Of a stretch of 64,000 bases of DNA, positions 7,611-34,326 are shown in pieces. The stretch covers positions 21,204,001 through 21,268,000 of the forward strand of contig OX597842.1 of NCBI GenBank assembly GCA_951406725.2, written 5' to 3'. Numbering within the stretch: position 1 is the first letter of the stretch; each line of letters begins with the position of its first letter. The stretch is from Octopus vulgaris (taxonomy: Eukaryota). The notes under the pieces were generated by a model. It had not been told where the DNA came from, did not search any database, and worked only from the letters and a program-made list of their open reading frames with translations. The position numbers and the translations under genes are program-made.

Positions 7611-7780
7611 TATGTGTGTGTGTGTATCTTTCTTTCTTCATCTTTCATATCCCTTTCTTTCACTCCAGCATCTTCTTTACTCTCTCTTCTCTTCTCTCCT
7701 TTCTCTCTCTCTCTATTCTTCCCTCCTCTCTCTCTATCTCCTTTGATATATTTTATATATCTTCTCTTTCTTCTCTTCAG

Positions 7781-7932
7781 GTCAACCAAATAAACTCACA
7801 CAGTAAAACTTTCTTAATGGCAGCTTGTGCACAGGGCAGCACAAGTCTAATAGCCTTCTTGATAGAATCTGGAGCCAATATAGACATGAGTGACAAAGGC
7901 AAGAATACAGCATTGCATTATGCTGTGAAAAG
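7781..7932 (+). CDS. Ankyrin exon VNQINSHSKTFLMAACAQGSTSLIAFLIESGANIDMSDKGKNTALHYAVK
   Basis: ttctcttcag acceptor, gtaagg donor; ankyrin consensus (GANID..D..NTALHYAV). Confidence 0.92.
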
Positions 7933-8991
7933 GTAAGGCTTGAATTAATTAAAATCTTCAGATCTGCTTTTGTTTTGAAATTTTTTGCAATTCCAGACTA
8001 TTTGAATATCCAAAGATACCATAATAGTGGCAGTGTGACACGATAACAACATGATAGTAATAACCAAATAACATCTTTTTCTCATTTTCTCCATGAATCC
8101 TCTTCATTGAATCACAATAATCTTTTTCGTTATTTTTTGTCAAAACAGATATGATTAGTATGGTGCGTTACACCACCACCAGTGGCCAGGTTGTCACTCA
8201 TCTGTCTCGCTTTATGACTACGAAGATGACTCGTGAGTCATCCTATACATACATACATGCATACATATCAGTATATATATAACAAAGTATGGAGATATTC
8301 TTTGAGAGCCAACAGTTCTTAAGATTGACTCATTGTGATTCAGTGTCTTCTCTTCATATGGATTATGGGGAGAGCAATCAATTTTTCTCCAAAGAAAATG
8401 TTATTTGAGATCTAAAGCAACAAGAAAGATTCTCTAGCTTGTTTTGACAGTAAATAATCTGTAAATTTCTTACAGAAATTATTTCTCACCTCCATCTGCA
8501 ACTCACTCAACACATTTTGAGATCTATTATATTTTGAATTGTGCTTCATAAGGTCATCTCTGGACAATAAAACATGTTTTGAAGTTCTTGTTAGTTTCTA
8601 TAGCTTCTGCAGTCACAAATTGTTCCAGAATTTTACACAAACACACACACACCATCATTGTCATCGAATGTTCCTTTTCCATGCTGGCATGGGTAGGAGG
8701 GTTTGATAGGAACAGACAAGTCAGAAGACCACACCAAACACTACTGTCTGTTTAGGTTTGGTTTCTATGGCTGGACGACCTTCCTAACACCAACCACTTT
8801 GCAGAGTGTACTGGATGCCTTTTACATGCCATCCGAACCAGTGAGGTCACCAATTAATTGCGAGACAAAGACCTCTCAACTGGTTGAGGTCGTGAGGTGG
8901 GGGAGCTAATATTGCTGGAGAGAAAGGTGTCTTGCATTAGAAGAGGGACATGGCTCCTTCAGATGGAGAAGACAGAGGAGGGAAACACTAG

Positions 8992-9496
8992 GTTAAAATC
9001 TTGTGTTTGGCCCAAGCAAAGAAAAAAGCGAAAAAATAGTGCAATAGGTGTGAAACAACATGTAGTAAACGAATATGAAAAAAAAAATATGGCGAACGGG
9101 AGACGACTCGGAAAATTAAAATCTCACCACTTCCCCGTTTGTCGGCGAATTTTTTGTTCTTCATTTTCGTTTTTTACATATTATTTTACACCCGGTACTC
9201 CACTTTTGTTCAATTTTTGTGACGGGGCGGCTGGGTGAGGTGCGGACTCGGATGATTCACACGATCTGGTAACCCCACTCGACAACCGGTCCCAAAAATG
9301 AAAACAAGAAGTGTAATAGGTGTAAAACAACATGTAGTTTTCGGATCCTGTGAAATTGATCGTGTGAATTTTCCGAGTCGTCTCCACCACCCCTCGTTCG
9401 CCAGCGTATTTTTTTTTTTTACATATTCGTTTACTACATGTTATTTTACACCTATTGCACAATTTTTTTTGCTCGAGTCAAACACTAGAGTTTAAC
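8992..9496. mobile_element. Palindromic MITE with ~125-bp TIRs, in intron 2
   Basis: gttaaaatcttgtgtttggcccaagc..gagacgactcggaaaatt is mirrored by aattttccgagtcgtctc..gctcgagtcaaacactagagtttaac. Confidence 0.8.
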
Positions 9497-9512
9497 TTAT
9501 ACACACACACAA

Positions 9513-9545
<33 letters not shown>

Positions 9546-10097
9546 TATATAATAAATATTTGTGTGTTTATATATTCATTTATGTGTGTTATATGACCGC
9601 CATACTTTACTGTTTCTTTTGGCGGTAAAAATACGCCTCGTTGCCCTTAACAACAAACTTTCTCTTGCATAGTCTGTTGCTATGACAACATTACATTTGC
9701 AGACGTAGTTTTGCTGCCAATTACGACGTGCTGCTGTTGTTGTTTTAGATTGATGAGAAATCTGCTATCAATTAGTTTGTCTATAATTTTCAGACATTCC
9801 ATCTTTCGCAAAAGGATTACAATATATTTTTCAATGTATACCAAATATGTAGATACTAACAACGGTACTTAATCCTTGTTTTGTATTGTACACTCGCTGG
9901 GATAAAAATATTTATATTTTATACCCTCACCTATTAATATGTGTATACACACACACGTACACATTTGTTTACTGTGTATTAATGATTATACGTATTTCAG
10001 TGGCTCATATTTCTCTGTCTGTCTGTCTCTCTATATACATACATATATATACACATACACATATACACCTATATAATATTATTGACTTTGACATTTC

Positions 10098-10131
<34 letters not shown>

Positions 10132-10135
<4 letters not shown>

Positions 10136-10854
10136 CATACCTCCACAACTGGGCCCCACGACGAATTTGTTTCCTTATAACTTTTAGACAAATGGATATT
10201 TTTTAATGAAATTTCTTTGACAAAAATGCTTCAGATGATGAAGATTCCAATTACATTGGAAATTGTTGTAAAAACAAATTTTCAAACGTTGAGGAGTTGA
10301 CTTTCTCAAAATTCACCCAAATCCGTTTTGTTTTTCTATAACTTTCAGAAAAGTGGATATTTTGTTTCTGTGAAAATTTCTACAAATCCCTTTGAAATGG
10401 TGTAGATTAGGATTATATCAGTATTTAACATGAAAAAACTTTAAAAATTTGATGATTTCGCACAGATACATACTGACACACATCACGGTTATTTTCCCAA
10501 AGTTCATCTTTTTATTTTCTGTTTTGTGTCAGTGTATATCTGTGCGAATCCACCAATTTTTATAATTTTCTTCATTAAATTCCGATATAATCGAAATCTT
10601 CACCATCTGAAACGGTTTTATTGAAAATTTCATTTGAAAATATCTATTTTTTTGGAAAGAAAGCCGACTCGGGTGAACTTTCCTAAATTTCTCTCTCCAC
10701 CCACCGAAAAGTTTTTTCTCACAACAAATTCCGATATAATTGGAATATTTGCCATCTGAATGATATTTGTGAAAGAAATTTCATTGAAAAACATCCATTT
10801 TTCTAGAAGTTACTAGGAAACATTCGTCTGGGGCACATTTGTGTAGGTTTGCCT
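10132..10854. mobile_element. Diverged foldback MITE with internally repeated arms, inserted in (TA)n in intron 2
   Basis: aggcatacctccacaactgggcccc.. is mirrored by ..ggggcacatttgtgtaggtttgcct. Confidence 0.75.
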
Positions 10855-10871
10855 TTACATACATACATATT

Positions 10872-10916
<45 letters not shown>

Positions 10917-11024
10917 GAGGCTGTAGTATACATAGGTTTTTATGCATTTAATGGAACACGAGTGTATATTTAATGTAATTATTAAGTGAATGTGATGTTT
11001 TATGTTTGTTTTTCTTCCTTTCAG

Positions 11025-11181
11025 CCACCGAACTGATGTTGTCGCCTTCTTAGTCTCCAGTGGAGCAAATGTTAATAAGCATAACTCATGGGGCGACACA
11101 CCTCTACATCTGGCTGTGGAGAAGAACTATGAAGATGTAGTCAAAGTCCTGTTAAATAGCAAAGAAAATAACAATTTACAG
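11025..11181 (+). CDS. Ankyrin exon HRTDVVAFLVSSGANVNKHNSWGDTPLHLAVEKNYEDVVKVLLNSKENNNLQ
   Basis: ttcctttcag acceptor, gtcagc donor; GDTPLHLA motif; phase 2 to 0. Confidence 0.93.
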
Positions 11182-11644
11182 GTCAGCGAATATATATATA
11201 TATATATGTGTCTGTGTGTATAATGATATGTATATTGGTTTGTGTTATATGTATATGAAACAGTTTATATTTATATTTTTTTAATTAAAAAATTTTCTTC
11301 AGCTCACACAGACCTGTACATATATACACAAATATACACACACATAAACGCATATATACACAAAAATGCATAAACAAATGATCAGTGAAGATATAAAACA
11401 CGTATGTATATGTAGGTATTTATGTATATATGTATGTGCGAGAGTGTATATATATATATATATATATATATGCATACACATATGTGTGTGTGTATAGATA
11501 CATTATTAATCTCATTTATTTTTCCCTCACCTTCATTCCACCTGTTTAAATTAATCTGATTCTGTTTTTCTGACATTTTTCCTTTTTTACCTTTTTCCCC
11601 CAATAAACACCATCTTTAATGTCTTTATTGTTTATCTTTTTTAG

Positions 11645-11901
11645 GTTAATCTGCGAAATATTTTGGGTTGCATAGCTCTCCATGTTGCCTGTCTCTTTGG
11701 ACACATAAAGGTTGTTGAACTTCTCCTGCAACAGAATGGCACGGATGTTAATGCTGTGCAGGAAGATGGTTGGACAGCTCTCCATGTTGCCTGTCACTTT
11801 GGACACAGAAAGGTTGTTGAACTTCTCCTGCAACAGAATGGCATCGATGCCAATAAGGTGAACCTCAAGGGTGACACTCCTCTACATCAGGCAGTTCGAA
11901 A
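11645..11901 (+). CDS. Ankyrin exon containing a recent 102-nt internal tandem duplication (ALHVACxFGHxKVVELLLQQNG twice)
   Basis: tttttag acceptor, gtaagt donor; GWTALHVA and GDTPLHQA motifs. Confidence 0.93.
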
Positions 11902-12719
11902 GTAAGTCCCCAATGGATTTGGATTATCCAAATCTGTTTCTTTAATGTTTGTTTTCTTGTTTTGAGTCATTCATGTCATAATCCCACCATGGGTCGTCAT
12001 GCTTCACCCCTCTCTCTCTCACACACTCTAATGACACTGTAATCTAACTTCATTAATTAATCATCATAATTATTGTTGTTGTTGTTGTTACCTGACTGGA
12101 TTCTTTACTTCATCTCATCCTTCGTTACCTCAACGTTACAGGTTCAAATCCTCTCCCTTCTTCCTTTCATTCCATGTACCCCCCCTTCTCTTGTAATTTT
12201 CCTCTTTCCTCTGGCCCTGGGCTAAATGCAGAATCATCCCCTTACTTTGACCCGTTTGTGTTCCAAGTTCAACTCCTGGGGTCAAAATCTGTACCAGTAA
12301 TATCCAGGGCTTCATTTAATAAATTGTCCTCCTCTTTACTCCTGTTCTTGTGTCTGATTACTGTTGGAAAATATTCAGATAAAATTTATAAGTGTTGATA
12401 TCTGGACGGTTTCCTAGTCTTCTGATTGTTTATGGAATATGCGGTGTAATTTTTAATTATGTATCTTATGCAAATAACGTACATCTTCTTTACGCTGGTT
12501 ATGGTAAATCTGTGTTTTGAGTTTATACCCTTCTTATAAATTTTATCTGAATATTTTCCAACCTTTGCCTTTTATTAACCCTTACGTCTTTCTACCCTTT
12601 TAGGCCCCTCTTTTTTGTATATTACGAGTTACCCTTCCAACCCCTTTCGTTGTATTAACAATTAATATTATCTTAATTTTAATGATTTTTAATACTATTT
12701 TAGTTAACAGTATGTATGT

Positions 12720-14135
12720 GTATGTTGTTGGCATCGTTTTTGTCTCAGGAGACAATGGAGTTGCGCATAAAATAGTCTAGTCCGGCTTTTACATTTCATG
12801 TCCTGATACATTTCCTGCTGTGGCTGTGTAGTCCTGTCCTGGACAAACACTCCCTCTGGCAGGTACTGCAAATGTAGCGAAGACTGTTCCTGGCTGGTTG
12901 TAGTGTCATAGTTTCTTGTTGACTTCTTTTCTTGTCTTTCCATTTCTCCTCTCTCTCTCTGTCACTCCTTTGTATTCCCTCTTTTACGGTACGTCCCCAA
13001 TCTCCACGGTTGCTGGCAATTGCTTCCCAACTGCTAATATTGATGTTGCAGGCCTTCATGTCCCTTTTGCAAACATCCTTGTAACGTAAGAACAGTCTAC
13101 CCACAGACCTAGTACCCCTAGCAAGCTCTCCGTAGAGTATGTCCTTGGGGATTCTACCATCTTTCATACGGCTAACATGCCCAAGCCATCTCATACGTCT
13201 TTGTGTGAGGAGTGCAAACATGCTTGGTATTCCTGCTTGCTTGAGGACATCTTTGTTGAGGATATGATTCTGCCATTTGATGCGGAGGATTTTCCGGAGG
13301 TAGCGCAGGTGAAAGATGTTTAGGCGACGCTCTTGGCGTGTGTATAGCGTCCAAGTCTCACTTCCATACAGTAGAGTGCTAAGTACACATGCCTGGTAGA
13401 TCTTCATTTTCGTGGTCTTAGTCAGCTTATTGTTGTCCCATGCCCGTTTGGAGAGTTGGGCCATCGCAGCAGCTGCCTTGCCAATGCGTATATTGAGCTC
13501 AACATCAAGGGATAGGTTGTAGGTGACGGTAGAGCCAAGATAGGTAAACTTCTCCACCTCCTGTAATCTGTGGTCTCCAATATGTATGTTTGGGATGTCC
13601 GATATAGCCTGACCCATGATGTTGGCCTTCTTAAGTCTGATAGCTAAGCCAAAGTTGTTACATGCTTGCTCAAAACAGTTAATGAGCCTTTGGAGGGCTT
13701 CTTCTGTGTGTGATACCAGAGTGGCATCATCAGCAAATAGCATCTCCTTGATCAGGACGTTTCTGATTTTGGTCTTGGCACGCAGGCGCGAGAGATTGAA
13801 CAGTTTCCCGTCACTTCTACTGTGCAGAAACACTCCATCATCTGATGTCTGAAAGGCATGTGAGAGCAAGAGCGAGAAGAAAATGCCAAATAATGTAGGA
13901 GTGAGGACACAACCTTGCTTTACCCTGCTTTTCAATTGGAAGGTGGCTGATGTTGAACCATTGTGCTGTATGGTGCCTTGCATATCATCATGGAAAGACT
14001 TGATGATCCTCAGCAGCTTTGGTGGACATCCGATTTTTTGGAGCAGGATGAAGAGGCCTTTTCTACTTACCAAGTCAAAGGCCTTTGTTAGATCAATGAA
14101 GGCCATATATAGTGGCATTTTCTGCTCTCTATGTG
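12720..14135 (-). mobile_element. 5'-truncated RTE (BovB-like) LINE with intact 440-aa RT/C-terminal ORF 12796-14118, antisense in intron 4
   Basis: FIDLTKAFD, VKQGCVL, LFADD, YLGS, LLYGSETW motifs; C-terminal CxxC..HxxxC finger; short 3' UTR. Confidence 0.95.
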
Positions 14136-14334
14136 TATGTATATATATACATATATGTGTGCGTGGTTGTTTTCGGGTATATGTATTTGTTGATATATAT
14201 ATATATATATATATGGATATATACGTATGTAGTTATGTATGTAAGCATGTATGTGTGTATGTAAGCTTGTATTTTCTGTTTTTTGGTTTATCTATGTATA
14301 TATGTGTAAGCGCACATATACGTGTGTATGTAAC

Positions 14335-14658
14335 GAAGACAATTGAAATTCAAATGTTCCAATCAATCCTATTGAGCTTTCAATCTTAAATTATTTCTAA
14401 ACTTACTACTTAATATATATCACCGTCAAAAATCTGACTTGTATGCATGTACACTTCTGGATTTTGCTATGATGTAAATCAATATTTTTCATTTTATATG
14501 TATTTGCTGATCTATAATGTTTTGCATTATACTGTATTATTATTGTTGTTATTGTTATTATGTTGCTATTTCACTATATTATGCTGTTGATTTTTTCCAC
14601 CTAATATGTACTGTGAACCACGTGATGCACATATTGTTTTACTGGTATTATTATTATT

Positions 14659-14689
<31 letters not shown>

Positions 14690-15350
14690 TTAATAGAGAT
14701 AATAGTGATGGTAATAGTAATGATAATAATGGTAATATTAATGGCATTTTGTAACTTAATATAATGAACTCTTGACTTTGTATATGTACATTTGCATATG
14801 GATATGTGTATGTTTGTATATTGTAATATTCTAATATATTGATTTGACTAAATGTAACCTTGTATATATGTATGTATATTATTATGTATATACGTGTATA
14901 TATATATAGGAGCATGGGTATATGCACTTATATGTATGTGTATATTATATATTATGTGTATGTACCCATTCTTGTATGGGTGTACCTTCTCTGATATTCA
15001 TATTTAGATTGTACTTTATAATCTCTGAAGAAGCCTTGGGATATATTTGTATGCGTCTCATTTATAACCACATATTAACTTATCACACCTGGCTAATATG
15101 AGCATAATGAGATACTCATATCTACATGGCTGAAACAGCTGTAAGATGTAGTTTATATTTATATTTATTTAGATTTATTTATACATATTGTACTTATTGT
15201 ATCATATTACTCATTGATGTGCATTGTTTTGTTCTGTACTATTATGTTTGACCTTGATGTTCATATGTGGTGGGTTTATAAATTGTGATTGGGTATTATC
15301 TGGTAGTTGATTATTGATTAAGGTGTATTTCTCCATTTTCTTATTTTGTA
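14335..15350 (+). mobile_element. Non-coding hammerhead-bearing (Penelope-like, non-autonomous) element, copy 1
   Basis: Colinear homology to the reverse complement of 43085-44100; ends ctccattttcttattttgta followed by (TA)n. Confidence 0.65.
15021..15147 (+). ncRNA. Type I minimal hammerhead ribozyme with long stem II (GUA site)
   Basis: atct-CTGAAGA-agcc..(gtctcatt/aatgagat)..ggct-GAAA-CAGCTG-TA-agat. Confidence 0.8.
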
Positions 15351-15398
15351 TACATATATATGTATGTATGTATGTATTTGTGTATGTATGTATGTGTG

Positions 15399-15431
<33 letters not shown>

Positions 15432-15528
15432 GTGTGTGTGTGTATATATATATATTATATTAAATTAGAGACAAAACCACTATTAGGCAAATCTGATTTT
15501 TCCCTGTAAGTTTGGATTTATTCCCTAA

Positions 15529-16130
<602 letters not shown>

Positions 16131-16253
16131 GTATAATATGTATATGTGTGTATGCAATTATTGATGTAATTAGGTTATAATGACTCAATTACATTTGTTT
16201 TAATTAATCTGATTATAATTATTTTTTTCCTTTCCTCTTTCTATAACTTTCAG

Positions 16254-16290
16254 GAGGCACTATGATGTGGTTGCTTCAATGCTGGTCCAG
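16254..16290 (+). CDS. 37-nt exon RHYDVVASMLVQ completing an ankyrin repeat
   Basis: Long pyrimidine tract plus cag, gttagt donor. It supplies the phase 2 to 0 link needed between the flanking exons and fits the ankyrin second helix. Confidence 0.85.
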
Positions 16291-16733
16291 GTTAGTTAAC
16301 AAATACATAATTATATTCTGTCTTTAATATTCGATATTAATATCATCAAAATACTGGTGGGTAGGTTTAATCAACTTCACTGCAGCAGCCTTTAAACGGC
16401 AGGTCTTGGGTCTGTGAAGAATAATTATATTGGTGATAACAATGATGACAGTAGTAGTGGTGTTGACAGTCCAACTGACCACCACTGCTGACAGTACTAT
16501 CTTCAATGGTCAGACAAGACAAGGTCATTATGAATTCAACCCATATATATCAGATTATATATATATCATCATCATCATCATCTTTTAATATCGCTCTGTC
16601 ATGTTGTATGTGTGTGTGATATGTTATATATGTACATTGTTGGTGTCGGCATTTTATCTTGTGTCCAATAATTTATTTGACTTCTTTTGGCTACTTTTTC
16701 CTCTCTGTACATATGTATAAATGTCTATGTATG

Positions 16734-16796
<63 letters not shown>

Positions 16797-17261
16797 CGGG
16801 AAGCTTTATGAAAATAGACAAAAGACGAAGGCATGTGGAAAACAAACAAACAATATATATATATATATGTATGTATATGTTTATGTACATACAGAGTTAT
16901 TCATACCAGACATATTGCATGCTGAGATTATGCAGCAGAGAAAAATTAAAAGTCCTTGTCCCCAGCAACAAAGCTAAATGAGGGTACGCTGCACTCAGTC
17001 CCTATTGCTTCATTAATCCATTACCATCAATACATGATGAATCGACTTCCCTTGTCCTTTCCCTACCTAATTCAACAGATTAACTACCCTTGCTGTATTT
17101 ATCTACCTAACTTATTTACCTCAAGGACATGTATTACGAAGGACGAGATGGACGCTTCATTTTTATGCTGTTGCCGCATTATGTCGTACGCGAATGAGAG
17201 GATTTGCATCCCCAACGTAGAATTTTTGATGTAATACATGTCCTTGAGGTAGTAATTGTGC

Positions 17262-17339
17262 GCGGCTGAAGAAGGCCATAGACACACATTATGCATTGTT
17301 ATAAATCCGTCTAATAAAGGCCCGAAACATATGTACTGC
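17262..17339 (+). ncRNA. Type I minimal hammerhead ribozyme (GUA site)
   Basis: gcgg-CTGAAGA-aggcc..ggccc-GAAA-CATATG-TA-ctgc; A-C mismatch at the base of stem II. Confidence 0.72.
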
Positions 17340-17569
17340 TGAATCCTTGGCATCATGTTTTTATTTTGATTAATTTACTCCACCACCTACACCACCAAAC
17401 GGTATATACAGGTGCTTACAATTATCAAGTACTCACCCTTAATTTCTGTACCCAACTAACTTATTTACCTGTATTTGTATTAACATTGCATTGCATGAAT
17501 GCCAGGATGCGGCACCCTCCACTGCTGGTGGTGACAATACCTGATTAACTCCTATTTACAGGTGTCCAT

Positions 17570-18650
17570 AAACAACCTTTTCAGATGCTGATAGCTGCAG
17601 TCAATGTAGGCACAGCAACAATCATCTCATCCTATGCGCTCCTCCCCCCACACACACAGACAACTGGGTCTGCCAAATGAACTGAAGGGCTACTTCTATG
17701 ACACTCTTCTGCTGGCCACTTCAAAGATAAATGACTGTGACCTTATCTTCGTGGCCAGTGATTTCAATGGATATGTTGGGCAGCACCGAGGTATCTTCCA
17801 TGGGGGACGCAGATTTGGTTCCTGAAATGAGGGGAGTGCAAGGCTACTGGAGTTCTGTGGTGCAAATGACCAAATAATCGCAACACTTGCTTCAGAAAGC
17901 TGGCCAGCCACTTGATAACCTATAAATCCAAGGTACATGCTCACCAAACTGACTACATTCTCACCCAAAAGCAGGATTCATGGCTGCTCATAAATGCAAA
18001 GGCCTTCAATAGAGAAGAATGTAGCCCACAGCATAGGTTACTCATTAGGGAGTTCAAGCTACTGGCTTGAAGGATTCCAAGAAGCAAGCAAGTTTGGAAA
18101 AGAAGAGTATGGAAGCTGAAGGAACCTTCAATTAGTCAGAAATTTAGTGATGTCCTAAATGAAGCATATAATGGGAAGGAGGAGGAATTTCAGACTTGCA
18201 GCATTGAGGATAAGTGGAAGTTCCAATGGGACAACTTGCTGAGAGTTTCAGACCAAATCTGTGGCTGGTGCAATGTCCCAGCCAGGCGTAGGGTGATGTG
18301 GTGGTGAAAAAGGGTAATTGACAGGGACAAGGATGGGAAGGGTGGTGGCAGCTGGGAGTTGTATCAGGCAGTTAGAAAGGAAGCTAGGAAGCAGGTATAC
18401 TCAGCCATGAGTGAAGCAGAAAGGAAGAAGTTTGCCAATGTCTTGCAATGTGAGGAGCAGAGATTTGAAGTGTTTTGGCTTGCCAAGGAAAATTGTGATG
18501 TTGTGAGAGAGAAGTGTGTTCACATGGATGATGGCTCCCTTGCAGTTAGTGACTCTGCAAAGAAATAGGCTTGGAAGTGCCACTATGAAAGGCTCCTAAA
18601 TGTAGAGAACGCGTGAGAGAAGGAGAGGCTGTCTAAAGTGGATCCAAGAG
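17570..18650 (+). mobile_element. Decayed RTE-type LINE endonuclease/linker fragment
   Basis: SYAP-like motif, FVASDFNGYVG, and a linker with AWK.HYERLLN-like sequence; multiple stops. Confidence 0.75.
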
Positions 18651-18799
18651 ATCTGTTTGTTTTTTTTAGTTGTTCGAAGAAAAGTTCATTTCTATGTTTT
18701 CGTTTCTCATTGTGTTCGTTTTTTTTAATGTCTTGTACCCATATATGCATGTATATATATACATATATATATATGTAGGTATGTACATATATTTATATA

Positions 18800-18832
<33 letters not shown>

Positions 18833-19358
18833 TGCAGTGGCAATTTTGATTGTTATATGAATATGTGTGTGTGTATATATATATGTGCGTGTATATATAT
18901 GTGTGTGTGTGTGCGTGTTACATCCATAACGTTAATATATTTATACATCTATATGTACAATGATGTAAGGATGTGGACACTAACCAACTCCCCCGTTTTA
19001 TGGATCCCTTATTAACATAGCAACATCAAAGGTTTACATTAAGTATATAATTCGTCTTTACTAGACTCGATCTGCTAATTATATTTTCACTCTTGTTCTA
19101 GTCCCCTAAAACATACTATATAGTGAGGGTAAATGAAGATGAGGCTGAAACTATCTGTTTATGACATCTTAATAGATTTATCATGTTCCTAACAAATATC
19201 CATAGCGTATTATAGAGGGACCTTACAGAAGGTTGACTACACTAACAAACATCAAATGTACATGATCAGGTTGATCAAGTACCCAGTAGAAGACAGCAAT
19301 GACACATCCACCCTAATTTTCATGTACATTTTCAATTTCTATTTTTACTTCCACAAAG

Positions 19359-19571
19359 GATTCAGTGAAACTGGATATTGAGAACAATCGTAAAAGAACA
19401 CCCTTACTGGACGCCATGTATGCAGCCCACCTCGGAATAGTCCATAAACTTATTATACATGGTGCGAACATGAATGCCGTCGACAATGATGGCAATAATT
19501 GTTTGCACCTTTCCATAATAAAGAAAGGGATGTTTCATTCTGAGGTGGAACACATTTACATTTTAGATAAG
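19359..19571 (+). CDS. Ankyrin exon DSVKLDIENNRKRTPLLDAMYAAHLGIVHKLIIHGANMNAVDNDGNNCLHLSIIKKGMFHSEVEHIYILDK
   Basis: ccacaaag acceptor, gtaagt donor; ankyrin consensus. Confidence 0.92.
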
Positions 19572-21355
19572 GTAAGTTTTTAAAATTGTTTGTGAATGTG
19601 TGTGTGTGGTTGGCATTAGGAAGGGCATCCAACCACAGAAACCATGCCAAAACTGGCAATTGGACCCTGAGCTGCTCTGCAGTTGGCCAGCCCTTGCTGA
19701 ACCATTGAACCCACACCAGCATGGAAAATGGACATTAAATGATGATGAGGAGGATGAGTAGAAGTGTGAGCTTGTGTGTGTGTGTGTGTGTAAGATAAAG
19801 AGAGAGAAATAGAGAAACGGGCAGACATTGCTTGCCATGTCTATTCACTCCCATCCACCTCTCTTCCATTAGTATTAAGTAATCCAGTCAATCCAGATAA
19901 CCCTAGTTATATTATGTAACTAACTATATTCCATCTCCTTTCACCCTCGAAGGCATGCTCTCTCCACTGTAAAGGAGGTAACCCATCTTGTTGGCTATAT
20001 AAACACAGCCATCACAGTGTGAAGGAAAGGTGACCAATGACAAAGAGGAGACATTCCCAAATAACAATGAAACAGGGAGGAGGAGAGGTCTGTGTGACAT
20101 GATAGACGATAACCTTTATAATGCTGGTGCCATGATAAATGCATCCAGACCATTCTGTGAAGAATTCTTCCCGAAACGACTCTTTATCACACATCTTGCA
20201 CACGATGTGTATCCACTGGTTTCCTGTAGACATGTCATCACAATGTTGAATGTTAGAACACTAGAGAATGGATACAATGAAGGAAGGTCCTTGGTGTGTT
20301 TTCCTGTATGTAGGTTGTGTATGTTCAACTACATATTTATCTGTCTCTCTCTCTCTCTCTCTTTCTTTCTGTATATATATATATATATATATATAAACAA
20401 ATGCATCAACATGTATCCATCGGGAGATCTGATGGTATATATTGTCTACTGTTTCAGAATTCAACCAACTCTTTGATTCCCGTATAAATAAAGGTCATTA
20501 CTGATGTGTGACTCTATTTCAAACATTTGATGATCATATGTAAATTGTAGTAATGTCTACTTTGGTGAGAAGAAGCCACTCTTGCAGTCAGCTACCCACC
20601 CAACTGGAATTGTCTAACAGTTTGAGCAGTTTATTAACTATAATGTGTTGGTGTGCTGCCTCAACTGTGACACTAATTCTTACTTCCTTTACTTTACCTT
20701 CATTATCCAAAGATGTTTCTTTATTAATTATGGAAACGTTGTTATTTTTGGATATGTCTGTATGGTGTTGCTTTTGTTGTTGTGTCTGTTCTAAGTATTC
20801 TCAGTTCTCATGTAACTTGTTTGCTGTCATGTTGTTGTGTTATATTTATATATACAATACTCCTCCATATTTCTTGTGTGATGGCCATTTATGGATTCAC
20901 CAAGCTAGTTGAATAGGTTGTTGTTAGTTTGTTGTGTTCTAATATTTGTGATGTTTGTTCCATTATATTCCATATATTTGACTTGATGCTATGATTTGGT
21001 TTTAAATTGTTTTTTATTGAATATCTTGTGATATTTGCAATTGGCAAATGATTATTTACGCATTAATTACCAATAAACTTGATGTTAATCAGTAATGTTT
21101 GTTCTGTTTAATATAATGACCATATATATAAAATATATAAAATATGTCATAATGCTGAGAATTAGACTAAAAACAAATGAAAATGGGAAATGGATTCAAT
21201 TAGAGATGATGTCGGAACTTAATATTGTGCAATCAGTTTAAGCGCTGGAGATACAAACTATTTGTATACGTAGTTGAACTGTTGTGTAATTTGGGTATCT
21301 ACGAAGTATATTTGTGAAATATTGTAATCATCATTTTATACTTTGTCATTTGTAG

Positions 21356-26275: not shown

Positions 26276-26400
26276 ATGTATGCTTTGTGAAGTGAATAAA
26301 GCCAGCATGGAGTTACAACCCTGTGCACATACTGTTTTATGTGAAGATTGTAGCAAAATTCAACTTAAAACATGTATAGAAAGCAAAAGAAGGAGAGTTG
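26276..26400 (+). CDS. RING-HC (IAP/MIB-type) exon CMLCEVNKASMELQPCAHTVLCEDCSKIQLKTCIESKRRRV; 8th zinc ligand absent
   Basis: ttttttccacag acceptor, gtaaga donor; pattern C-x2-C-x11-C-x-H-x3-C-x2-C-x7-C-x2-S. Confidence 0.88.
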
Positions 26401-27653
26401 GTAAGAATATGATTTGATGATCTGTCTGTTTGTCACATGACATTATGGAATGGAATAATGTTGTATCAACCCAGATCTGTCATAATCTGACAGACGTATG
26501 ATAAAAAATGTCCCAGGTGTCTTTTCTCTTTGATAGTATATCCATGACTACACCCACTGAATATTGTCTTTATCCAAGTAGGAAACCTGTCCCACATCAA
26601 AAGAGTACTGTCTGCAACATAAGACTAATACGTTTTACTGAAATATAAATGAAATATCAATAAATCTCCAAGGTCCCATCAGTAAACATCAACTTTTTAT
26701 ATTCAGTTGTCAGCTTTTATATGAGGTTAATGATTTATAAGTACCTTGGGAAACTGATAATTAAGGACAACAGTACTTCCTACAACATCACAGTCAGCTT
26801 TGTAATGTAAGAATTTCAATGACAAAATCTCAACTGAGAGTTTAAGACTCTTAGCGAGTCTTATATATTCTTGAGAATGAATTCTAGTGTCCCATTTCAG
26901 ATATAACTCCTTTGCAATAATGTGTAGATAAACAGTTTTAAGTTAAGGAGGTTTTATACAAATGTAATGTTTCAGGATACCTCTTATCACTTTCTGCTCC
27001 ACCTGTGTAGAACTAATCATTGCTCACCTGGAAAAAGAAAAAGCTGCTTATTAATGAGGATGAATGACATTGAAATATCTTCAGATCTTTCCTGAATCAG
27101 GTGGTATTCTGGTGAAGTGTGATGTGGGCAGTTAAAATTAAAGATTACCAACTGTAACATATAAAAATGAGGGCTGGGGTATGTTTATCCTTCCTGAACC
27201 AATGTGTCATGCCTTTGTGGCCAGATCTTTGAAGACCAGATTGGTTGACACTGGAATTTAGCAGAAAATGAGAAGAATATTGGTTAGTGAAGGTTCGAGA
27301 TGAGAGGACAATGGCATGTCATATGACCAGCACAGACATAACAAAGGAAAGACAAAATTAAGAGAAAAAGAGTGTTATGAAGGGATAAATAAGTGAGAGA
27401 ATTTCAGAATCCTTAGATTAGTATATAGGATGTCTTAAGAGAAAGATGAGATTTAGAAAGGTTTGCCTATTTTGTTGTGGTTCTAAGTATTGAACTATTA
27501 TATAGTAACAGCTTAGAAAGTGTTGACTGAAAGCATAGTGGTCACCAATTGACTATTGATGATATGAATGCCTTACAAAAATGGAATATAGATTATTAAA
27601 AGAGACAAAGAAATTTTACTATGAAGTATAAAACTTTGAAATGCTTATTTCAG

Positions 27654-27704
27654 TGTGTCCAAAGTGTACAGAAAAAGCAGTCAAGACGGTTGTAGAATCT
27701 GTTG
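27654..27704 (+). CDS. Mini-exon A (51 nt) VCPKCTEKAVKTVVESV
   Basis: ttatttcag / gtgagt; phase 1-1. Confidence 0.82.
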
Positions 27705-27819
27705 GTGAGTATAAAATATCTGTAATTGATTTCTATAAATTTTACCTTCACCTGAGATATATTATTTGTGTGAATGACTGAGAACAGGTTCCATTCTTAA
27801 TTTCCAATTCTTATTTCAG

Positions 27820-27855
27820 AATGTCCAAAGTGTAAAGAAAAAGTAGAATCTTTTG
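27820..27855 (+). CDS. Mini-exon B (36 nt) ECPKCKEKVESF
   Basis: ttatttcag / gtgagt; phase 1-1; in-frame 15-nt deletion relative to A. Confidence 0.78.
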
Positions 27856-27970
27856 GTGAGTATAAAATAACTGTAATTGATTTCTATAAATTTTACCTTC
27901 ACCTGAAATATATTATTTGTGTGAATGTCTGAGTACAGGTTCCATTCTTAATTTCCAATTCTTATTTCAG

Positions 27971-28021
27971 TGTGTCCAAAGTCTGAAGAAAAAGGAGTCC
28001 AGACGGTTGCAGAATCTGTTG
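27971..28021 (+). CDS. Mini-exon C (51 nt) VCPKSEEKGVQTVAESV
   Basis: ttatttcag / gtgagt; phase 1-1. Confidence 0.78.
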
Positions 28022-28136
28022 GTGAGTATAGAATAACTGTAATTGATTTCTATAAATTTTACCTTCACCTGAGATATATTATTTGTGTGAATGACTGAGA
28101 ACATGTTCCATTCTTAATTTCCAATTCTTATTTCAG

Positions 28137-28187
28137 TGTGTCCAAAGTCTGAAGAAAAAGCATTCAAGACGGTTGCAGAATCTGTTG
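28137..28187 (+). CDS. Mini-exon D (51 nt) VCPKSEEKAFKTVAESV
   Basis: ttatttcag / gtgagt; phase 1-1. Confidence 0.78.
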
Positions 28188-28970
28188 GTGAGTATAAAAT
28201 AACTGTAATTGATTTCTATAAATTTTACCTTCACCTGAGATATATTATTTGTGTGAATGACTGAGAACAGGTTCCATTGTTACATTTCTTTCAAATGGTT
28301 AGCGATAAAAGTAATTCTATTCGCTACCTACAAATGCAAGAATATCCAATAAAGGGGTTTTATAGAAATATGGAAACATGAGACACAGGAAAAATGTCTT
28401 TCACGATGAGGCCAAAATACAAAAGATAAAATATAAACCCTGAAGCTGTTCTCTCCCCATAATGAGATACATTCACTTTTCTTTCATCTCATTGTTGTCT
28501 CTCTCTCCTTCCCTGTTTCTTCCTTCATCTCTCTCTCTCTCTCTCTATGCATCTACATGTAGCAGCCTCTGTACTTTCCAGTCGTGTAACAACATGAATT
28601 GTATTTAAAATATTGATATTACAGAAATTTAATAAAATGTCCAGCAGTGTTGGCCCTGTTGCTAAAATGGTTAAATTAGAAAAAACAAACAAACAATAGA
28701 GTTAATATTGTCTTTTGAATGAAGGAAGAAAAACATTTTGTTGTTTAATGGTAAACAGGTGAGTTAATGACAGTGTTTGTTTGTTGTACATTTTCAATAA
28801 GTTTACTGATTATTGTTGTTGATGTTCTTGTTGAACAAGATGGTTAAGTTGAAAGCTTACAAGTGTGATCACCCTGTCTTTTTTTTTTTACTGTTAGTAA
28901 ATCTATCATTACATCCATTAAACGATGTCTTTGTCCAAGTAAGAAGCTTTGGTCTGCTGCTGAGACAATT

Positions 28971-29008
<38 letters not shown>

Positions 29009-30497
29009 TAAGATGGACACTGGTTGCAAGATACAATACAATCGATGTTATTGTCCTCATCATTTACAGTCTGCTCTCCTTGCTTCCATGTAATGGATGG
29101 GTAATCACTGTCCAAGTCAGTTCTTATTCAGAGTTACTGTCCCCCTTGACTGCTTGAGAAACACATCTCCCTTAAACATTCCACCTTTTCTATGGTGGGA
29201 TGCCCTCCCCCCAACACCAACCACTTCATAAAGAGTCCTGAGTACATTTTAATGTGGCACAAGCACTAGAAAGATTTTCATGTGTCCAACATTGAAACTG
29301 GAATAGCTGTAGGTTGCACACTATCAGTCACTTAGTTTGTGCTTGTTATGGGGATCGGCAGATTTATGAGAAGAAATTACTCAGGCGAAATCATCTAAGA
29401 AAACATTCATGGATGACATAAAAATGCTAACAAGAGATCCAAAGTATATGCAATCAGTCCAAGATAGATTGGATGGACTAATTAATTGCTCAAGAATGCT
29501 GTTTGAAACAAATAATGAATGCATTCTGACATTTGTGAAAGGTCAACAGAAGCAAGTGAAGTTCAAAATAGCAGGAGAAATGATGCGAAAGGTTAAAGAG
29601 TAACTTGTAAAACGTTTTGGACTGTGGTAGATGATCTCATTGTCCGATAAGAGTAGAGGCATTGATGTCATTGCAGAAACCGAGGATGGGCAATAAGCAT
29701 TTGCCAAGTCAAAACTTCTGGGCAAAAACAAGATTTGGTGCTTGAAGTTTGATCTATATCACCTTCTTGATAATATATTCTTAAATATCACTTCTTTTGT
29801 ACCATTTCAGATATTTTTTCCTTTGCAATAATCTGTGTATGAACATTTGCATGTTGTTAAAGATGTTTTGTGCAAGTATACAGTGTTTTAGGATACTTGC
29901 TATCACTTTCTGTTTCACCTGTGTAGAACTTATCATTGCTCATCAGGAAAGAAAAGCATTTCATTAAGGAGTCCTTAAATATTTCCTGAATCAGATGAAA
30001 TTCTGGTGAACTGTGAGTTGCATTGTTTAAAATTAAAGATTAAAAGCAGCAACGTTTGACAAAGATAACAGGTGTGACATGAGTTTGTGTCAAGGTCATT
30101 GATGACCAGCTTGGTTGACATCAGAATTAAGCAAAAGAAGAGGGGAATGTTGATTAGTGAAGTCCAGTGGTGAGGGGACAATGCCATGTCATAGGTTTAG
30201 AATGGATACAAGAGATACATGTGATCATTAAATAAGATGATTGCAACGTTGTTAGATTAAGTAGGATGTCTTAATAGAAAAAGGAGGCTTAGGAAGGTCA
30301 GTCTATTTTATTATGGGCCTAAATATTGAGCCATTATATAGGACCACGGTAGAAAGTATAAAACTATCAACCAAACCTATAGTGGTCAGCAGTTGTCCAT
30401 TGATGATAGGAATGTCTTACAATAATAAAATATAAACCATTAACAGAGATCAGGAAATTGTGCTATGAAGTGTAAAATTTGGAAATATTTATTTCAG

Positions 30498-30569
30498 ATT
30501 CTGTAATGGTAGAGGAGATTCATCTTCATAGGGTGTCCCAAAAGTTGGCAGGTAAATGGATGGAACTTG
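30498..30569 (+). CDS. Death domain N-terminal exon DSVMVEEIHLHRVSQKLAGKWMEL
   Basis: ttatttcag / gtgagt. L..V...L...W..L matches death-domain helices 1-2 and joins in frame to GRELGI. Confidence 0.85.
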
Positions 30570-31557
30570 GTGAGTATAAAATACCGAATTTCTATAAATT
30601 TTGCTTTCAGCTAAACTTTTGTTTGTTTGAATGACTGAGAACCGATTCCATTCCTAATTTCCAATTGAAAGTTTAGCTATAAAGTAAAGCTATCACTGAA
30701 ATTTCATAAAATATCTATGGACGTCAGCACGGTTGTAAAATGTATAAATTAGGTCCAGTAGAGTTAATATTATCGTTTGTAAAAGGGGACTCAAAAATAT
30801 TGTTGTTTAAGAGTAAACAGGTGAATTAATGACAATGTTTTTGCTTGTTTACACTTTTAGTAAGTTTACTAGTAGAGTGTTGTTGTTGATGTTTATTTTG
30901 GCAGATATCTGCCTTAATCTGGCAGAATTAAGGGGAAAGGGTTCCAGATGTGCCATCGCTCTTTCTCTTGGGTGAAGAGGACCACATTATCAAATGTAAC
31001 CTTTTTAAAATGAGAGTGTGCATTGTGTGGAACATGTTGTCATCTCTCCCCTGGCCAGTCTGTTTTTCTATATTTATTGTAATTCTTTAGTCCCAGGTCA
31101 ACATATATTTCCTGTCTCTATCGAAGACAGGCCCCATTGTTGATTGTGTTCATGGCTGGATTGAACTCAGCATTGTAAGTTAATGAAACACTCATTTATA
31201 TTAGAAAAAAAGAATCTCAACAGAAAATTCAAACTCAACTTGATCTTGTTTCTCAATTGAAATCATTTCACTCTCCTTTACATTACAAATGTCACGTGGA
31301 AAGGCATGAACATCACAATATCCCATTTCCCTTTCTCCGACAGTTTAACACAACATAAAATATCATTTATACAATGCTCCTATTATTTACAGCAATGTCT
31401 TCTACCTCCCTATGGTACCTATATACATCTAGATAGAATGAAGCATAGAGAAATGTCTTTACCAGGTACATTGAGCGGTGCTGGGGATTAGATTTGAACC
31501 TTTGATCCCTGACTCAAGGGATCATGACAATATCCCTTGAGTCAGCTGATAGAAACC

Positions 31558-32430
31558 ATCATCTTCATCATCATTTGATGTCTGTTTTCCATGCTGGCAT
31601 GGGTTGGACTGTTTGACTGAGGTCTGGAGAGCCAGTGGCTGCACCAGGCTCCAATCTGATCTGGCAGAGTTTCTACAGCTGGATGCCCTTCCTAATGCCA
31701 ACCACTCCGAGAGTGTAGTGGCTGCTTTTTATGTGTCACCAGTATAGGAGCCAGTCAGGTGGACCTAGCATCAGTCATGTTCGGATGGCCTTTTTACGTG
31801 CCACCAACACAAGGAGTCAGTCAGATGACACTGGCATCGACTACATTTGGATGATGCCTTTTATGTGCCACCAGAACGGGGGCTAGTCATGGGGCACTGG
31901 CCACAGCTGCAATTTTGGTTTTACTTGACTCAACAGGTCTTCTCAAGCATATCATGTCACCCGATGCATTAAGGATACTCTTAAATGGGCCGGACATGCA
32001 ACACTGGCATCAGCCATGGCTGCGATCTCACTTTAGTTGCTGGGTCTTCTCAATCACAGCATATTTCCAAAGGTCTCGGTCTCCTGCCATTGCCTCTGTG
32101 AGGCCCAATGTTCAAAGACCATGCTTCACCATCTCATTCCATGTCTTCCTGGGTCTACCTCTTCCACAGCTTCGTTCTACAGTTAGGGAGTGGCACTTCC
32201 TCACACAGATGTCCTAATCCATACATAACACGTGACCATACCAGCACAGTCGTCTCTCTTGCACACCACATTTGATGCTTCTTATGTCCAACTTTCCTCT
32301 CAGGGTGTTTACACTGTGTTGTGTATGCACACAGACATTCCACATCCAGCGGATCATACTACCTTCATTTCTGTCAAGTCTATGCATGTCCTCAGCAGTC
32401 ATGGCCCATGTTTCACTACCATGTAGCATG
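31558..32430 (-). mobile_element. RTE-type LINE 3' fragment, same family, in the last intron
   Basis: MLHGSETW..CWYGHV; same 3' UTR. Confidence 0.88.
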
Positions 32431-34120
32431 GCAGTTCACACTCAGAAATGATTTATCTAAATTAAGAAAGGACATCATCTACAACATTGCCAGCTTGCTA
32501 TACCTCTGGGTGTCATACAAAATATACCAGTCATATACTGGGATAAAATGAATCCACTAACACCAGGTCCGTTATCATCATCACCTTACATCCATTTTTC
32601 TAAGTTTGTAATGGTCAGACGACTTCTCCCAGAGTTGTTGTGGTCCTTTGTCCAGTTTGATCACTTGTTTCTTTCCACTTGAATTCCAGGAACTTCTTTA
32701 CCCAGATTTCATCTGCCATGTCCCTTCTATATCTATACCATTATCTTTTTTCTTGTACACTATCACAGATTCTTCTGAGATCCAGTTATTTGGCTCCAAG
32801 ATTTCAACACATTAACATTACACTTCTAGAGATGTCTGCTCACCTCATTTCCTGGCAGTTTCCATTGTATCTTTCACATTCTATGTAACATTGCATGAGG
32901 TGTATTTGTAAAGTGCAATCTCTCCCCCATATGGAGACAGAATCCCTTAGTTGCCAGTAGACATAACAACTCCCTGTACATTTTTCATCTCATTTTCCTT
33001 CTAACTACTGTGCTTTCAGAATAGTTTCCTCTACTTCTAATTCTGTCCTTTAGGTAACAGAAACTATCAACTATGTCTTTCATACTTGTTCCTATGAACT
33101 ATTCCTGTACACATACAAAGTCCTTCCTCAGCCCTAACCTTAACCTGCCTCCTTGTAAACTTGCTTGTTTGTGAATGCAGTGATTCTATCAGGACCCAAG
33201 TGTTGTAGGTGTATGGTGTAGATGTTGGTAAAACTCTTCTCATTGCTTTATTTACTCTAGGGCCTCTCCTGTATTAGATTCTTTGAAATTGTGGCCTTGA
33301 TCCAGTGAAAGAAGTTCTTGTTATAAGTCATGAATCCAAAAACCTTAAGCCAGTGCCCTCTATAATATGTGATATTTACCTAACAGTATTATATTTTTAC
33401 TTTGGGGTGGTTGAAATCATTCAGGTACACAATCCCCACTTTTGAGATATTTCTGAATGTTGATAATTTTTAAATATTTATTAATCATAGGTGGAAAGAC
33501 ATCGCAAATGACTATTTCAGGCATTGATCACAGGACGTTATCAAACGACTGAGATTGTATTCCTCCAAAGAGTCTCTGGAGTAACGTTACTCAACAAGGT
33601 GTGCAGGCTGGAGATTTGGGGCCTCTCCAGGTCAAGTGACTGCTTCTCTGCATTGAGAATTCACAGCTCCAGTACTCCTGGCATGTGATTAAAATGTCAC
33701 AGGAAAGAACCACAAGAGGGATGAAGGAGGTGCCTGAAGACTCTTCCCCTACAACTCTCCTATGAATAGAGGGCAGAGAAAATGGACGGATGGATGAAAT
33801 TATCTGTTGGTGGTCTTTGTTAATTCTTTAGGCTCTCATACACTGCTACCCACACAAACACTTCTCCTGCCAGTTGTTCACCAGACATTTTCTCATGTGT
33901 AATTTTCAATTCTTTAAAATATTATTCTCCTTCTCCAGCCTTTATTTCAACTTGTTTGATATTTTTGTCAACATCTTTAGAAATAGATGACAATGTCTTC
34001 TAATTTCCCTGTTTCTTAAGTATTTCTCATTCTTCTATTCACATAATTTCTTTGTCCTAATTAATACAGGTTTTATATTATCGTTAATGCTGTTGCAATT
34101 ATTTCTTATTTCTTTTGCAG

Positions 34121-34326
34121 GAAGGGAATTAGGAATTCGACAAAATGACCTGGAAATCATCAGGCATGACTATCCTCAAAGCGTTAGGGAACAAGGCTTC
34201 CAGATGCTGTTCAAATGGCATCAAAGTACTGATCCAGAGAAACGTACACTTCAAATATTAAAAGCAGCTCTTAAGGAAACTGAATGTTATGATGCACTCA
34301 AATGTTTATCATCAGAATTCAATTGA
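34121..34326 (+). CDS. Terminal exon, death domain C-terminal part GRELGIRQNDLEIIRHDYPQSVREQGFQMLFKWHQSTDPEKRTLQILKAALKETECYDALKCLSSEFN*
   Basis: tcttttgcag acceptor; death-domain consensus (W..LGR.LG....L..I....P....EQ...ML..W......T...L..AL); stop TGA 34324-34326. Confidence 0.92.

Follow-up and report, generated by a model that had tools for sequence, protein, structure and literature searches.

Mini-exons between the RING and death domain of an Octopus gene family as probable copies of the first death-domain exon and predicted LC8 docks

How can two exons that hardly resemble each other lie within introns that clearly do? In the window (the whole 64,000-nt stretch of Octopus vulgaris DNA analyzed here), a 51-nt exon encoding CPKC and the 72-nt exon that opens a death domain occupy such a position. 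The sequence-only reading had proposed the duplication of an exon along with its long flanks, the coding part then diverging faster than the introns, being replaced within them, or being reciprocally lost from a longer ancestral exon, perhaps recording the fusion of RING and death domain. Our analysis suggests instead that the mini-exons probably arose by tandem duplication of death-domain exon 1, in frame and together with some 1 kb of intron, that they were then shortened by 21 bases, and that they likely serve as LC8 docks. The argument refers to the following features.

7760..19580, + strand: at least four ankyrin-repeat exons, likely of the same gene, with frames near 7.8, 11.0, 11.7 and 19.4 kb (Pfam ankyrin matches; bounds approximate)
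26276..26400, + strand: RING exon, lacking 18 nt (6 codons including the last CxxC) relative to close paralogs
26888..27653, + strand: acceptor-side flank, upstream copy of the duplicated module (self-BLAST, shuffle-tested alignment)
27654..27704, + strand: mini-exon 1, 51 nt, CPKC type, LC8-motif Q changed to K; apparently derived from death-domain exon 1
27694..28288, + strand: 166-bp units in tandem, each an exon with a 115-nt intron (TRF, 3.7 copies, 88% matches)
27820..27855, + strand: mini-exon 2, 36 nt, CPKC type, motif deleted, skippable
27971..28021, + strand: mini-exon 3, 51 nt, core KGVQT kept, predicted LC8 site, skippable
28137..28187, + strand: mini-exon 4, 51 nt, motif no longer present (position 0 is K)
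28606..28833, + strand: far donor-side flank, upstream copy (self-BLAST, shuffle-tested alignment)
29798..30497, + strand: acceptor-side flank, downstream copy (self-BLAST, shuffle-tested alignment)
30498..30569, + strand: death-domain exon 1, 72 nt, intact copy (start of the Pfam Death match at 433-512 in P0286; splice joints)
30570..30900, + strand: donor-side flank, downstream copy (self-BLAST, shuffle-tested alignment)
34121..34326, + strand: death-domain exon 2 through the stop codon (Pfam Death, E 1.7e-9)

The flanks of the two exons are homologous, as had been claimed. Self-BLAST of the window paired 26888-27785 with 29798-30642 (66% identity, E 8e-100) and 28606-28833 with 30680-30900 (71% identity, E 1e-29), and global alignment, with 60 shuffles for each comparison, gave scores of 594 for the acceptor-side flanks (shuffles -17 ± 15), 119 for the near donor side (-7 ± 6) and 197 for the far donor side (-5 ± 13). 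The 487 bases upstream of the flank scored 9.5 (shuffles -26 ± 12), so clear homology begins near 26888. The alignment runs to the AG and GT of both exons, hence to both splice sites, and the exons have the sizes reported earlier and are both phase 1-1, confirming that an exon was duplicated together with long flanks. Because percent identity over aligned columns overstates the similarity of deeply diverged sequences, with shuffles too giving 0.70, the flank identities and deep bins were not used as rates, which were taken from close pairs only. The coding DNA has diverged faster than the introns, as the sequence-only reading had also supposed, and it is because the exons of this family evolve faster than its introns that dissimilar exons now sit in homologous flanks.

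Many family members have repeated copies of the module (flank, phase 1-1 exon, flank) after the RING exon and before the final, intact death-domain copy; in the window, the upstream copy itself comprises four exons in an array (3.7 units of 166 bp), and their 115-nt introns, a length read from splice joints, are built from the two ends of the module, donor-side and acceptor-side. The flanks have 67 and 129 matches in the genome, numbers that could suggest a dispersed repeat inserted twice. We give that explanation practically no chance: 54 of the 60 main flank matches are followed on their own strand, at no more than 16 kb, by death-domain exon 2, two of the remaining six also show it and a third (L028) holds a death-domain exon 1, while the matches stop at the splice sites and enclose a homologous exon. 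The flanks are almost confined to the Octopus ankyrin-RING-death-domain family and are therefore not the high-copy repeat that had been named as an alternative. Their tree is star-like, with good support for 16 of 55 branches.

Read directly, the window pair shares just 17-19 of 51 bases, and the earlier statement that the exons lack similarity holds for that pair. It does not hold for the profile of 25 death-domain exons, which is matched by mini-exon 1 (z 2.3-2.5, p 0.006-0.018) and mini-exons 3 and 4 (z 3.5-4.3, p 0.001), mini-exon 2 being non-significant (z 1.4). All 19 lineages of 51-nt exons beat shuffles against the same profile (p ≤0.011 in the lineage rows), and their consensus is identical to the death-domain consensus at 33-34 of 51 positions. 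From end to end, the mini-exon aligns in frame with the death-domain exon, interrupted by a single 21-nt gap, which gives no support to replacement of the exon within its introns. Intermediates of 72 nt exist: L069 contains four copies that form a decay series, and motif-bearing copies occur in L062, L134, L138 and L140. Judged from these alignments, the 51-nt exon is not foreign but an in-frame copy of death-domain exon 1 minus 21 nt. A frame-shifted origin of CPKC from the VSQK codons of the death domain was also considered and dropped, as the in-frame alignment fits and intermediates exist. In assembling these sets, we dropped 4 of 258 slots as mis-called, found 5 of 81 stretches to be without the module, left 5 decayed death-domain-like copies out of the linker set, removed 10 of 32 close relatives to obtain 22 lineages and removed 4 of 58 rows in the clade test.

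Reciprocal loss from a longer exon that held both CxxC and the start of the death domain would account for the low similarity of the window pair, and CPKC does resemble the end of a RING. We consider it very improbable, given the full-length, colinear and in-frame alignment and given that none of the 72 death-domain slots contains CxxC or joins it with death-domain helices, the longest slot exon being 78 nt. CxxC occurs only in the young clade, and in O. bimaculoides P0030 an intact RING precedes CPKL and DKGVQT, so that the idea is contradicted already within Octopus. Nor does the duplication record the RING-death-domain fusion, since some paralogs run from a complete RING straight to the death domain. 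This direct arrangement, with a single death-domain slot, was found in 5 of the 33 stretches that include a RING (L070, L071, L119, L122 and L095); in L095 it looks like a later deletion, and the single-slot genes may be secondary losses.

Splicing joins the mini-exons one after another and can leave copies out, but they do not replace each other in the mRNA. The RING exon is joined to 27654 in three of four read runs, as are death-domain exons 1 and 2 (30569-34121), and further joints connect mini-exon 1 with 2, 3 with 4, and 4 with death-domain exon 1; these runs are presumed to be RNA, none being on record as such, and paralogs at 96% identity or more can supply joints. Annotated proteins contain all mini-exon copies, and the splicing of older motif exons in paralogs is database annotation. 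The death domain (Pfam PF00531) spans exons 1 and 2, at 433-512 of P0286 (model 3-83 of 86, E 4e-12).

The spare copies likely dock LC8, a reading that draws on their sequence. The published consensus is [D/S]K.[TVI]Q[TV][D/E], located in a disordered segment with no proline at -4 to 0 (PMC3078936). The core K-x-[TVI]-Q-[TV] is present in 58 of 182 non-death-domain slots versus 0 of 72 death-domain slots; 124 of the 182 copies lack even the core, and 7 match the full consensus. In the window, the core (K at -3, T/V/I at -1, Q at 0, T/V at +1) is found in mini-exon 3 and is absent from mini-exons 1, 2 and 4. At -4 and +2, where the full consensus has D/S and D/E, mini-exon 3 carries E and V; among 62 measured binders in PMC12057147 supplement 1, E at -4 occurs in four and V at +2 in none. 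It has no proline at -4 to 0, the nearest noted being at -8, and the linker is predicted to be disordered (pLDDT <50 at 318-393 in the AlphaFold2 model of the O. sinensis ortholog). Measured binders close to its core include ZFPM1 SDKGVQTP (1.6), Bmf EDKATQTL (0.7) and SLC9A2 REKGTQTS (2.2), values from the same supplement of PMC12057147 that we read as micromolar via the Bmf value. A canonical LC8 is encoded in the genome (L141). The linker is flanked by the RING and the death domain. Neither the LC8-type motif nor the 18-nt RING deletion figured in the sequence-only reading, and literature searches found no published account of the LC8 reading for this family.

The same copies could be tolerated spacers of identical origin, with K-V-Q-T having arisen once by chance and persisted by descent or gene conversion without LC8 binding. 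Linker codons outside the motif have pN close to pS (0.44 and 0.43), most copies lack the core, copies are gained and lost quickly, and a single origin of the motif is neither shown nor rejected by the flank tree (p-AU 0.36), all of which would suit spacers. Conservation points the other way: among 13 columns it is highest at K-3, Q0 and T+1, with free variation at -2, which is the pattern of LC8 clients, and of 715 four-column sets the one made up of the motif columns comes 2nd and 4th, for a motif that was first spotted by eye in the data later tested. The core is kept in 12 of 22 lineages, compared with 5-24% in a neutral-decay simulation that presumes a motif-bearing common ancestor (binomial p 0.002 at the cautious rate). 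Motif codons have pN 0.30 and pS 0.71, from non-independent pairs and with a pS near saturation over few sites. The motif is also retained in O. bimaculoides (P0015, P0021 and P0030). We therefore regard mere spacers as unlikely, if the strongest of the alternatives.

The cysteine pairs raise a separate matter. The 18-nt deletion removes the closing CxxC, itself CPKC in paralog DNA, from the RING of the window gene, which likely lacks a normal RING for this reason: Pfam zf-C3HC4_3 spans model positions 5-39 of 49 in the RING exon and 4-39 of 49 in P0286, with 26.6 bits against a cut-off of 27. The CPKC of mini-exon 1 might supply the lost zinc pair, or mini-exons 1 and 2 might form a new C-x2-C-x13-C-x2-C site. 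The deletion is unique to the window gene among 10 genes of its RING subfamily, the gene is one of two in the young clade of 27 with CxxC in the first slot, the same pairing of deletion and CxxC recurs in O. sinensis, mini-exon 1 is kept in 16 of 16 proteins examined in its cluster, and 15 of the 27 genes have some CxxC copy. Against this, the other first-slot gene, L113, has an intact RING, the decayed RINGs of L095, L103 and L104 come without any CxxC exon, no zinc-ribbon family matches the linker in Pfam searches of P0286, and the AlphaFold2 model of the O. sinensis ortholog, built on 24 sequences and containing no zinc, gives pLDDT 50-59 for the deleted RING (301-320) and <30 over the CPKC exons versus 74-80 for the intact RING of a control paralog. 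A zinc role is in our view doubtful. Foldseek with the control model returned only ankyrin proteins among the matches listed. CPKC is a late point-mutation variant; CxxC is confined to the young clade, and in older copies S, R, N, G or T stands in place of the first cysteine and F or S in place of the second. Copying from the RING exon, where the last RING CxxC of paralogs sits, was rejected because its synonymous codons differ from those of the mini-exon. In the window gene, two of the copies have drifted into such cysteine pairs, any use of which is conjectural.

For the LC8 docks, we propose that spare copies of the exon stayed in frame because it is symmetric, losing the helix-2 signature, and that a handful of substitutions next to a lysine that death-domain exons often carried already would have produced K-x-V-Q-T, presumably then retained by selection. 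LC8 dimers would fasten two chains to each other within the disordered linker, and copy number and exon skipping would set the strength. In the young clade, single-base changes would have produced the CxxC variants, mostly without the glutamine, leaving the window gene with one predicted site, in mini-exon 3.

Parts of this arrangement are familiar from known systems. Multivalent LC8/DYNLL clients such as ASCIZ/ATMIN, Nup159, 53BP1, Bmf and ZFPM1 have several copies of a K-x-[TVI]-Q-T core (PMC3078936, PMC12057147, PMC5963919), and the predicted disorder of the linker is likewise shared (PMC3078936); in the octopus, however, each predicted site is its own symmetric, skippable exon descended from a folded-domain exon, flanking positions are often off consensus and binding is a prediction. 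Tandem duplicated exon substitutions also involve an exon duplicated within one gene and alternatively spliced (PMC9741552), but unlike mutually exclusive exons the octopus copies are serial rather than substitutes and have left the parent fold behind. In NCoR co-repressors, alternative splicing also sets the number of short linear motifs, there from one large exon split by introns (PMC4554918), whereas the octopus motif exons come from copying a domain exon.

The family has at least 135 death-domain matches in the genome, some broken, and is labeled 'MIB2-like' in the database; literature searches found no description of it. Mind bomb 1/2 E3 ligases carry N-terminal MZM and REP, ankyrin repeats and then C3HC4-type RING. 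The octopus family shares the ankyrin repeats followed by a C3HC4-type RING, and differs in that the gene has one RING (here without the last CxxC) and a C-terminal death domain; MZM and REP are absent from the 12 Pfam families listed for P0286, whose annotated N-terminus may be incomplete. A broader and rather speculative idea makes the 72-nt exon a motif factory, yielding spliceable LC8 modules that would tune the oligomer state and later, in the young clade, zinc-binding CxxC modules that in the window gene would replace the pair lost from the RING; it sees the family as large and fast-evolving. If LC8 binding is true, one could trace at the level of single codons how a folded domain gave rise to a short linear motif, since one genome contains the intermediates, and the origin of such motifs would be directly testable with natural peptides, giving a concrete handle on an octopus family of more than 100 death-domain loci labeled only 'MIB2-like'.

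The gene in the window encodes ankyrin repeats, a RING, a linker and a death domain, in that order. AG/GT borders stand at every exon edge from the RING through the stop, and these exons translate into the final 196 residues of three annotated Octopus vulgaris MIB2-like proteins (196/196). The upstream copy of the module, a phase 1-1 exon slot between its acceptor-side and donor-side flanks, consists of four mini-exons (51, 36, 51 and 51 nt) in tandem, with a repeat unit of 166 bp. Among the joints listed for contigs of four runs guessed to be RNA, to which close paralogs can contribute, GT-AG joints were found from the RING to mini-exon 1 in three runs, between mini-exons 1 and 2 in all four, between death-domain exons 1 and 2 in three, and for mini-exons 1-3, 2-4, 3-4 and mini-exon 4 to death-domain exon 1 in one each. 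Annotated isoforms of O. sinensis variably include mini-exons 2 and 3.

Comparison of the window with itself bore out the flank homology proposed in the sequence-only reading, with both pairs scoring far above shuffled sequence:
26888-27785 and 29798-30642, flank pair, 66% identity
28606-28833 and 30680-30900, flank pair, 71% identity

Homology runs up to the AG and onward from the GT of both exons, and upstream of 26888 little or no match was found between the two copies. The flanks have 67 and 129 genome matches, as could be expected of the dispersed repeat that the same reading had named as its own alternative; death-domain exon 2 itself has at least 135. We ruled out such a repeat, inserted independently, because 54 of the 60 main flank matches have a death-domain exon 2 within the next 16 kb downstream. 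Other repeats and features lie elsewhere in the window:
34506-34722 and 35285-35500, inverted repeat, 94% over 218 bases, just 3′ of the stop codon
34426-34700, deep cover in the runs mapped, overlapping the inverted repeat downstream of the stop
37300-39480, tandem array of ~350-bp units akin to a dispersed repeat at 31552-32444, 40264-41230 and 47121-47999
17-420 and 3386-3786, direct repeat, 97% over 404 bases
12796-14232 and 57592-60278, both reverse strand, frames resembling LINE reverse transcriptase and endonuclease (judged by eye)

The survey covered 81 stretches, namely 80 of 10 kb each and the window; flank profiles identified 258 exon slots in 76 of them, of which 254 were kept after removing 4 mis-calls. 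Most genes have an intact 72-nt death-domain exon in their last slot, preceded by slots with relatives of 26-78 nt. The mini-exon and death-domain exon of the window had been described as dissimilar, which stands for that pair (17-19 of 51 bases) but not for the family, as 33-34 of 51 bases agree between the consensus of 19 51-nt lineages and the one built from 25 death-domain exons, and the alignment needs just one 21-nt gap, around codons 13-19, in the region of the LG..W signature. All 19 lineages score above shuffles against death-domain exons, and the window pair looks unrelated because of drift. Intermediates also exist: one stretch (L069) carries four 72-nt copies in graded decay, and four others (L062, L134, L138 and L140) have 72-nt copies already bearing a K-x-[TVI]-Q-[TV]-type motif. 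Taken together, we are highly confident that the mini-exons originate from death-domain exon 1. The death domain is an old domain, and its age and the exon colinearity suggest the direction from death domain to linker, which the flank tree leaves unrooted.

The RING leads directly to a single death-domain slot in 5 of 33 stretches with the RING in view and in the O. bimaculoides protein P0016, and CxxC occurs in 0 of 72 death-domain slots, so that the search among paralogs for one ancestral exon with both CxxC and the death-domain start came back empty. With the suggested direction, these results indicate that the duplication postdates the RING-death domain fusion, rather than recording how it arose. 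Other members show further changes. In L095 (3673-3677; G000:C29, near 28205672), a deletion fuses the upstream and downstream acceptor flanks and removes the whole mini-exon array, and the RING is also decayed; L094 and L117 have a 57-nt death-domain exon 1 lacking the first five codons. Tandem runs of death-domain exon 2 with stop codons lie at G000:C1:216930658-216965049 and C1:102723613-102732821. In O. bimaculoides P0058 and P0284, the family death domain ends a protein labelled adhesion-type GPCR, after an STSQQ-repeat linker; this could reflect a genuine fusion or two gene models run together.

The coding part had been proposed to diverge faster than its introns, and death-domain modules agree: in the 111 pairs whose flanks are at least 97% alike, p was 0.015 in the intron, with pS 0.019 and pN 0.075, and in the 89 pairs at 92-97%, the three values were 0.047, 0.055 and 0.143. 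The 25 modules near the window copy have 33 non-synonymous alleles over 55 sites, as compared with 4 over 14 synonymous sites and 100 over 469 flank columns, a non-synonymous excess with p 8e-9 relative to flanks and p 0.07 relative to synonymous sites. These figures suggest that the exon is under diversifying selection or undergoes patchy gene conversion; the pairs are not independent, and one member carries a stop. Multi-base patches recur at the 3′ end of death-domain exon 1 (30498-30569) and its paralogs, and may likewise represent diversifying selection or micro-conversion.

CxxC is present in 36 of 182 mini-exon copies, and among the stretches surveyed its carriers all belong to the young clade. 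A single base separates the first cysteine codon from the codons for S, R or G found in older copies, and the second is TGT in 18, TCT in 42 and TTT in 13 of 76 young 51-nt copies. Glutamine is absent from 14 of 17 distinct CxxC sequences versus 11 of 32 in the compared set, a contrast inflated by shared descent. In the window RING, 18 nt are missing between two short near-repeats; this deletion takes out the closing CxxC, and O. sinensis shows it too, together with a first-slot CPKC. Zinc ligands in RING domains follow a consensus spacing, on which it is possible that CPKC rescues the deleted RING. However, neither predicted structures nor paralogs gave support for this: predicted pLDDT was 50-59 at 301-320 of the deleted RING and <30 over the CPKC exons, versus 74-80 in an intact control RING, and L113 has an intact RING alongside a first-slot CxxC. 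We therefore consider a zinc role for CPKC improbable.

The core K-x-[TVI]-Q-[TV] was found in 58 of 182 non-death-domain slots versus 0 of 72 death-domain slots, and matches the LC8/DYNLL motif, given as [D/S]-K-X-[T/V/I]-Q-[T/V]-[D/E] in PMC3078936; counting against an LC8 role, the full consensus is present in only 7 of 182 copies. K (26), Q (25) and T (25) are the three most conserved columns in 32 linker representatives, whereas the free position that they enclose varies, and the motif columns rank 4 (32 rows) and 2 (22 rows) among 715 four-column sets. The core is kept in 12 of 22 lineages, versus 5-24% expected under neutral decay of a consensus ancestor. In the death-domain exon, K is already the commonest residue at the lysine place (15/25) and Q occurs at the glutamine place (4/25), so the motif is a few substitutions away. 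In PMC12057147 supplement 1, measured LC8 binders close to the family motif include ZFPM1 SDKGVQTP (1.6), Bmf EDKATQTL (0.7) and Pac11 YDKGIQTD (0.62); across its 62 measured rows, position 0 is Q in 56 and K in none. V at +2, the residue of the window, is found in none of these rows, which also counts against LC8 binding. O. bimaculoides P0030 carries SDKGVQTV directly after an intact RING that resembles that of the window. In proteins P0001-P0052, most of which belong to the family, 18 cores occur in 21,710 residues, as compared with 3 in the 44,626 residues of P0053-P0156. Motif-bearing 51-nt copies with an open frame and no GT donor (L073, L083, L084, L125, L138, L140 and L063) are perhaps silent, or spliced from a different donor.

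In the literature covered, thin for subscription journals, no paper was found on this octopus family or on an LC8 motif arising from a death-domain exon. Exon duplication in tandem is of a known kind, and so are multivalent LC8 clients. The genome encodes a canonical LC8, and, judging by their motif, the mini-exon copies of this family probably serve as LC8 sites.
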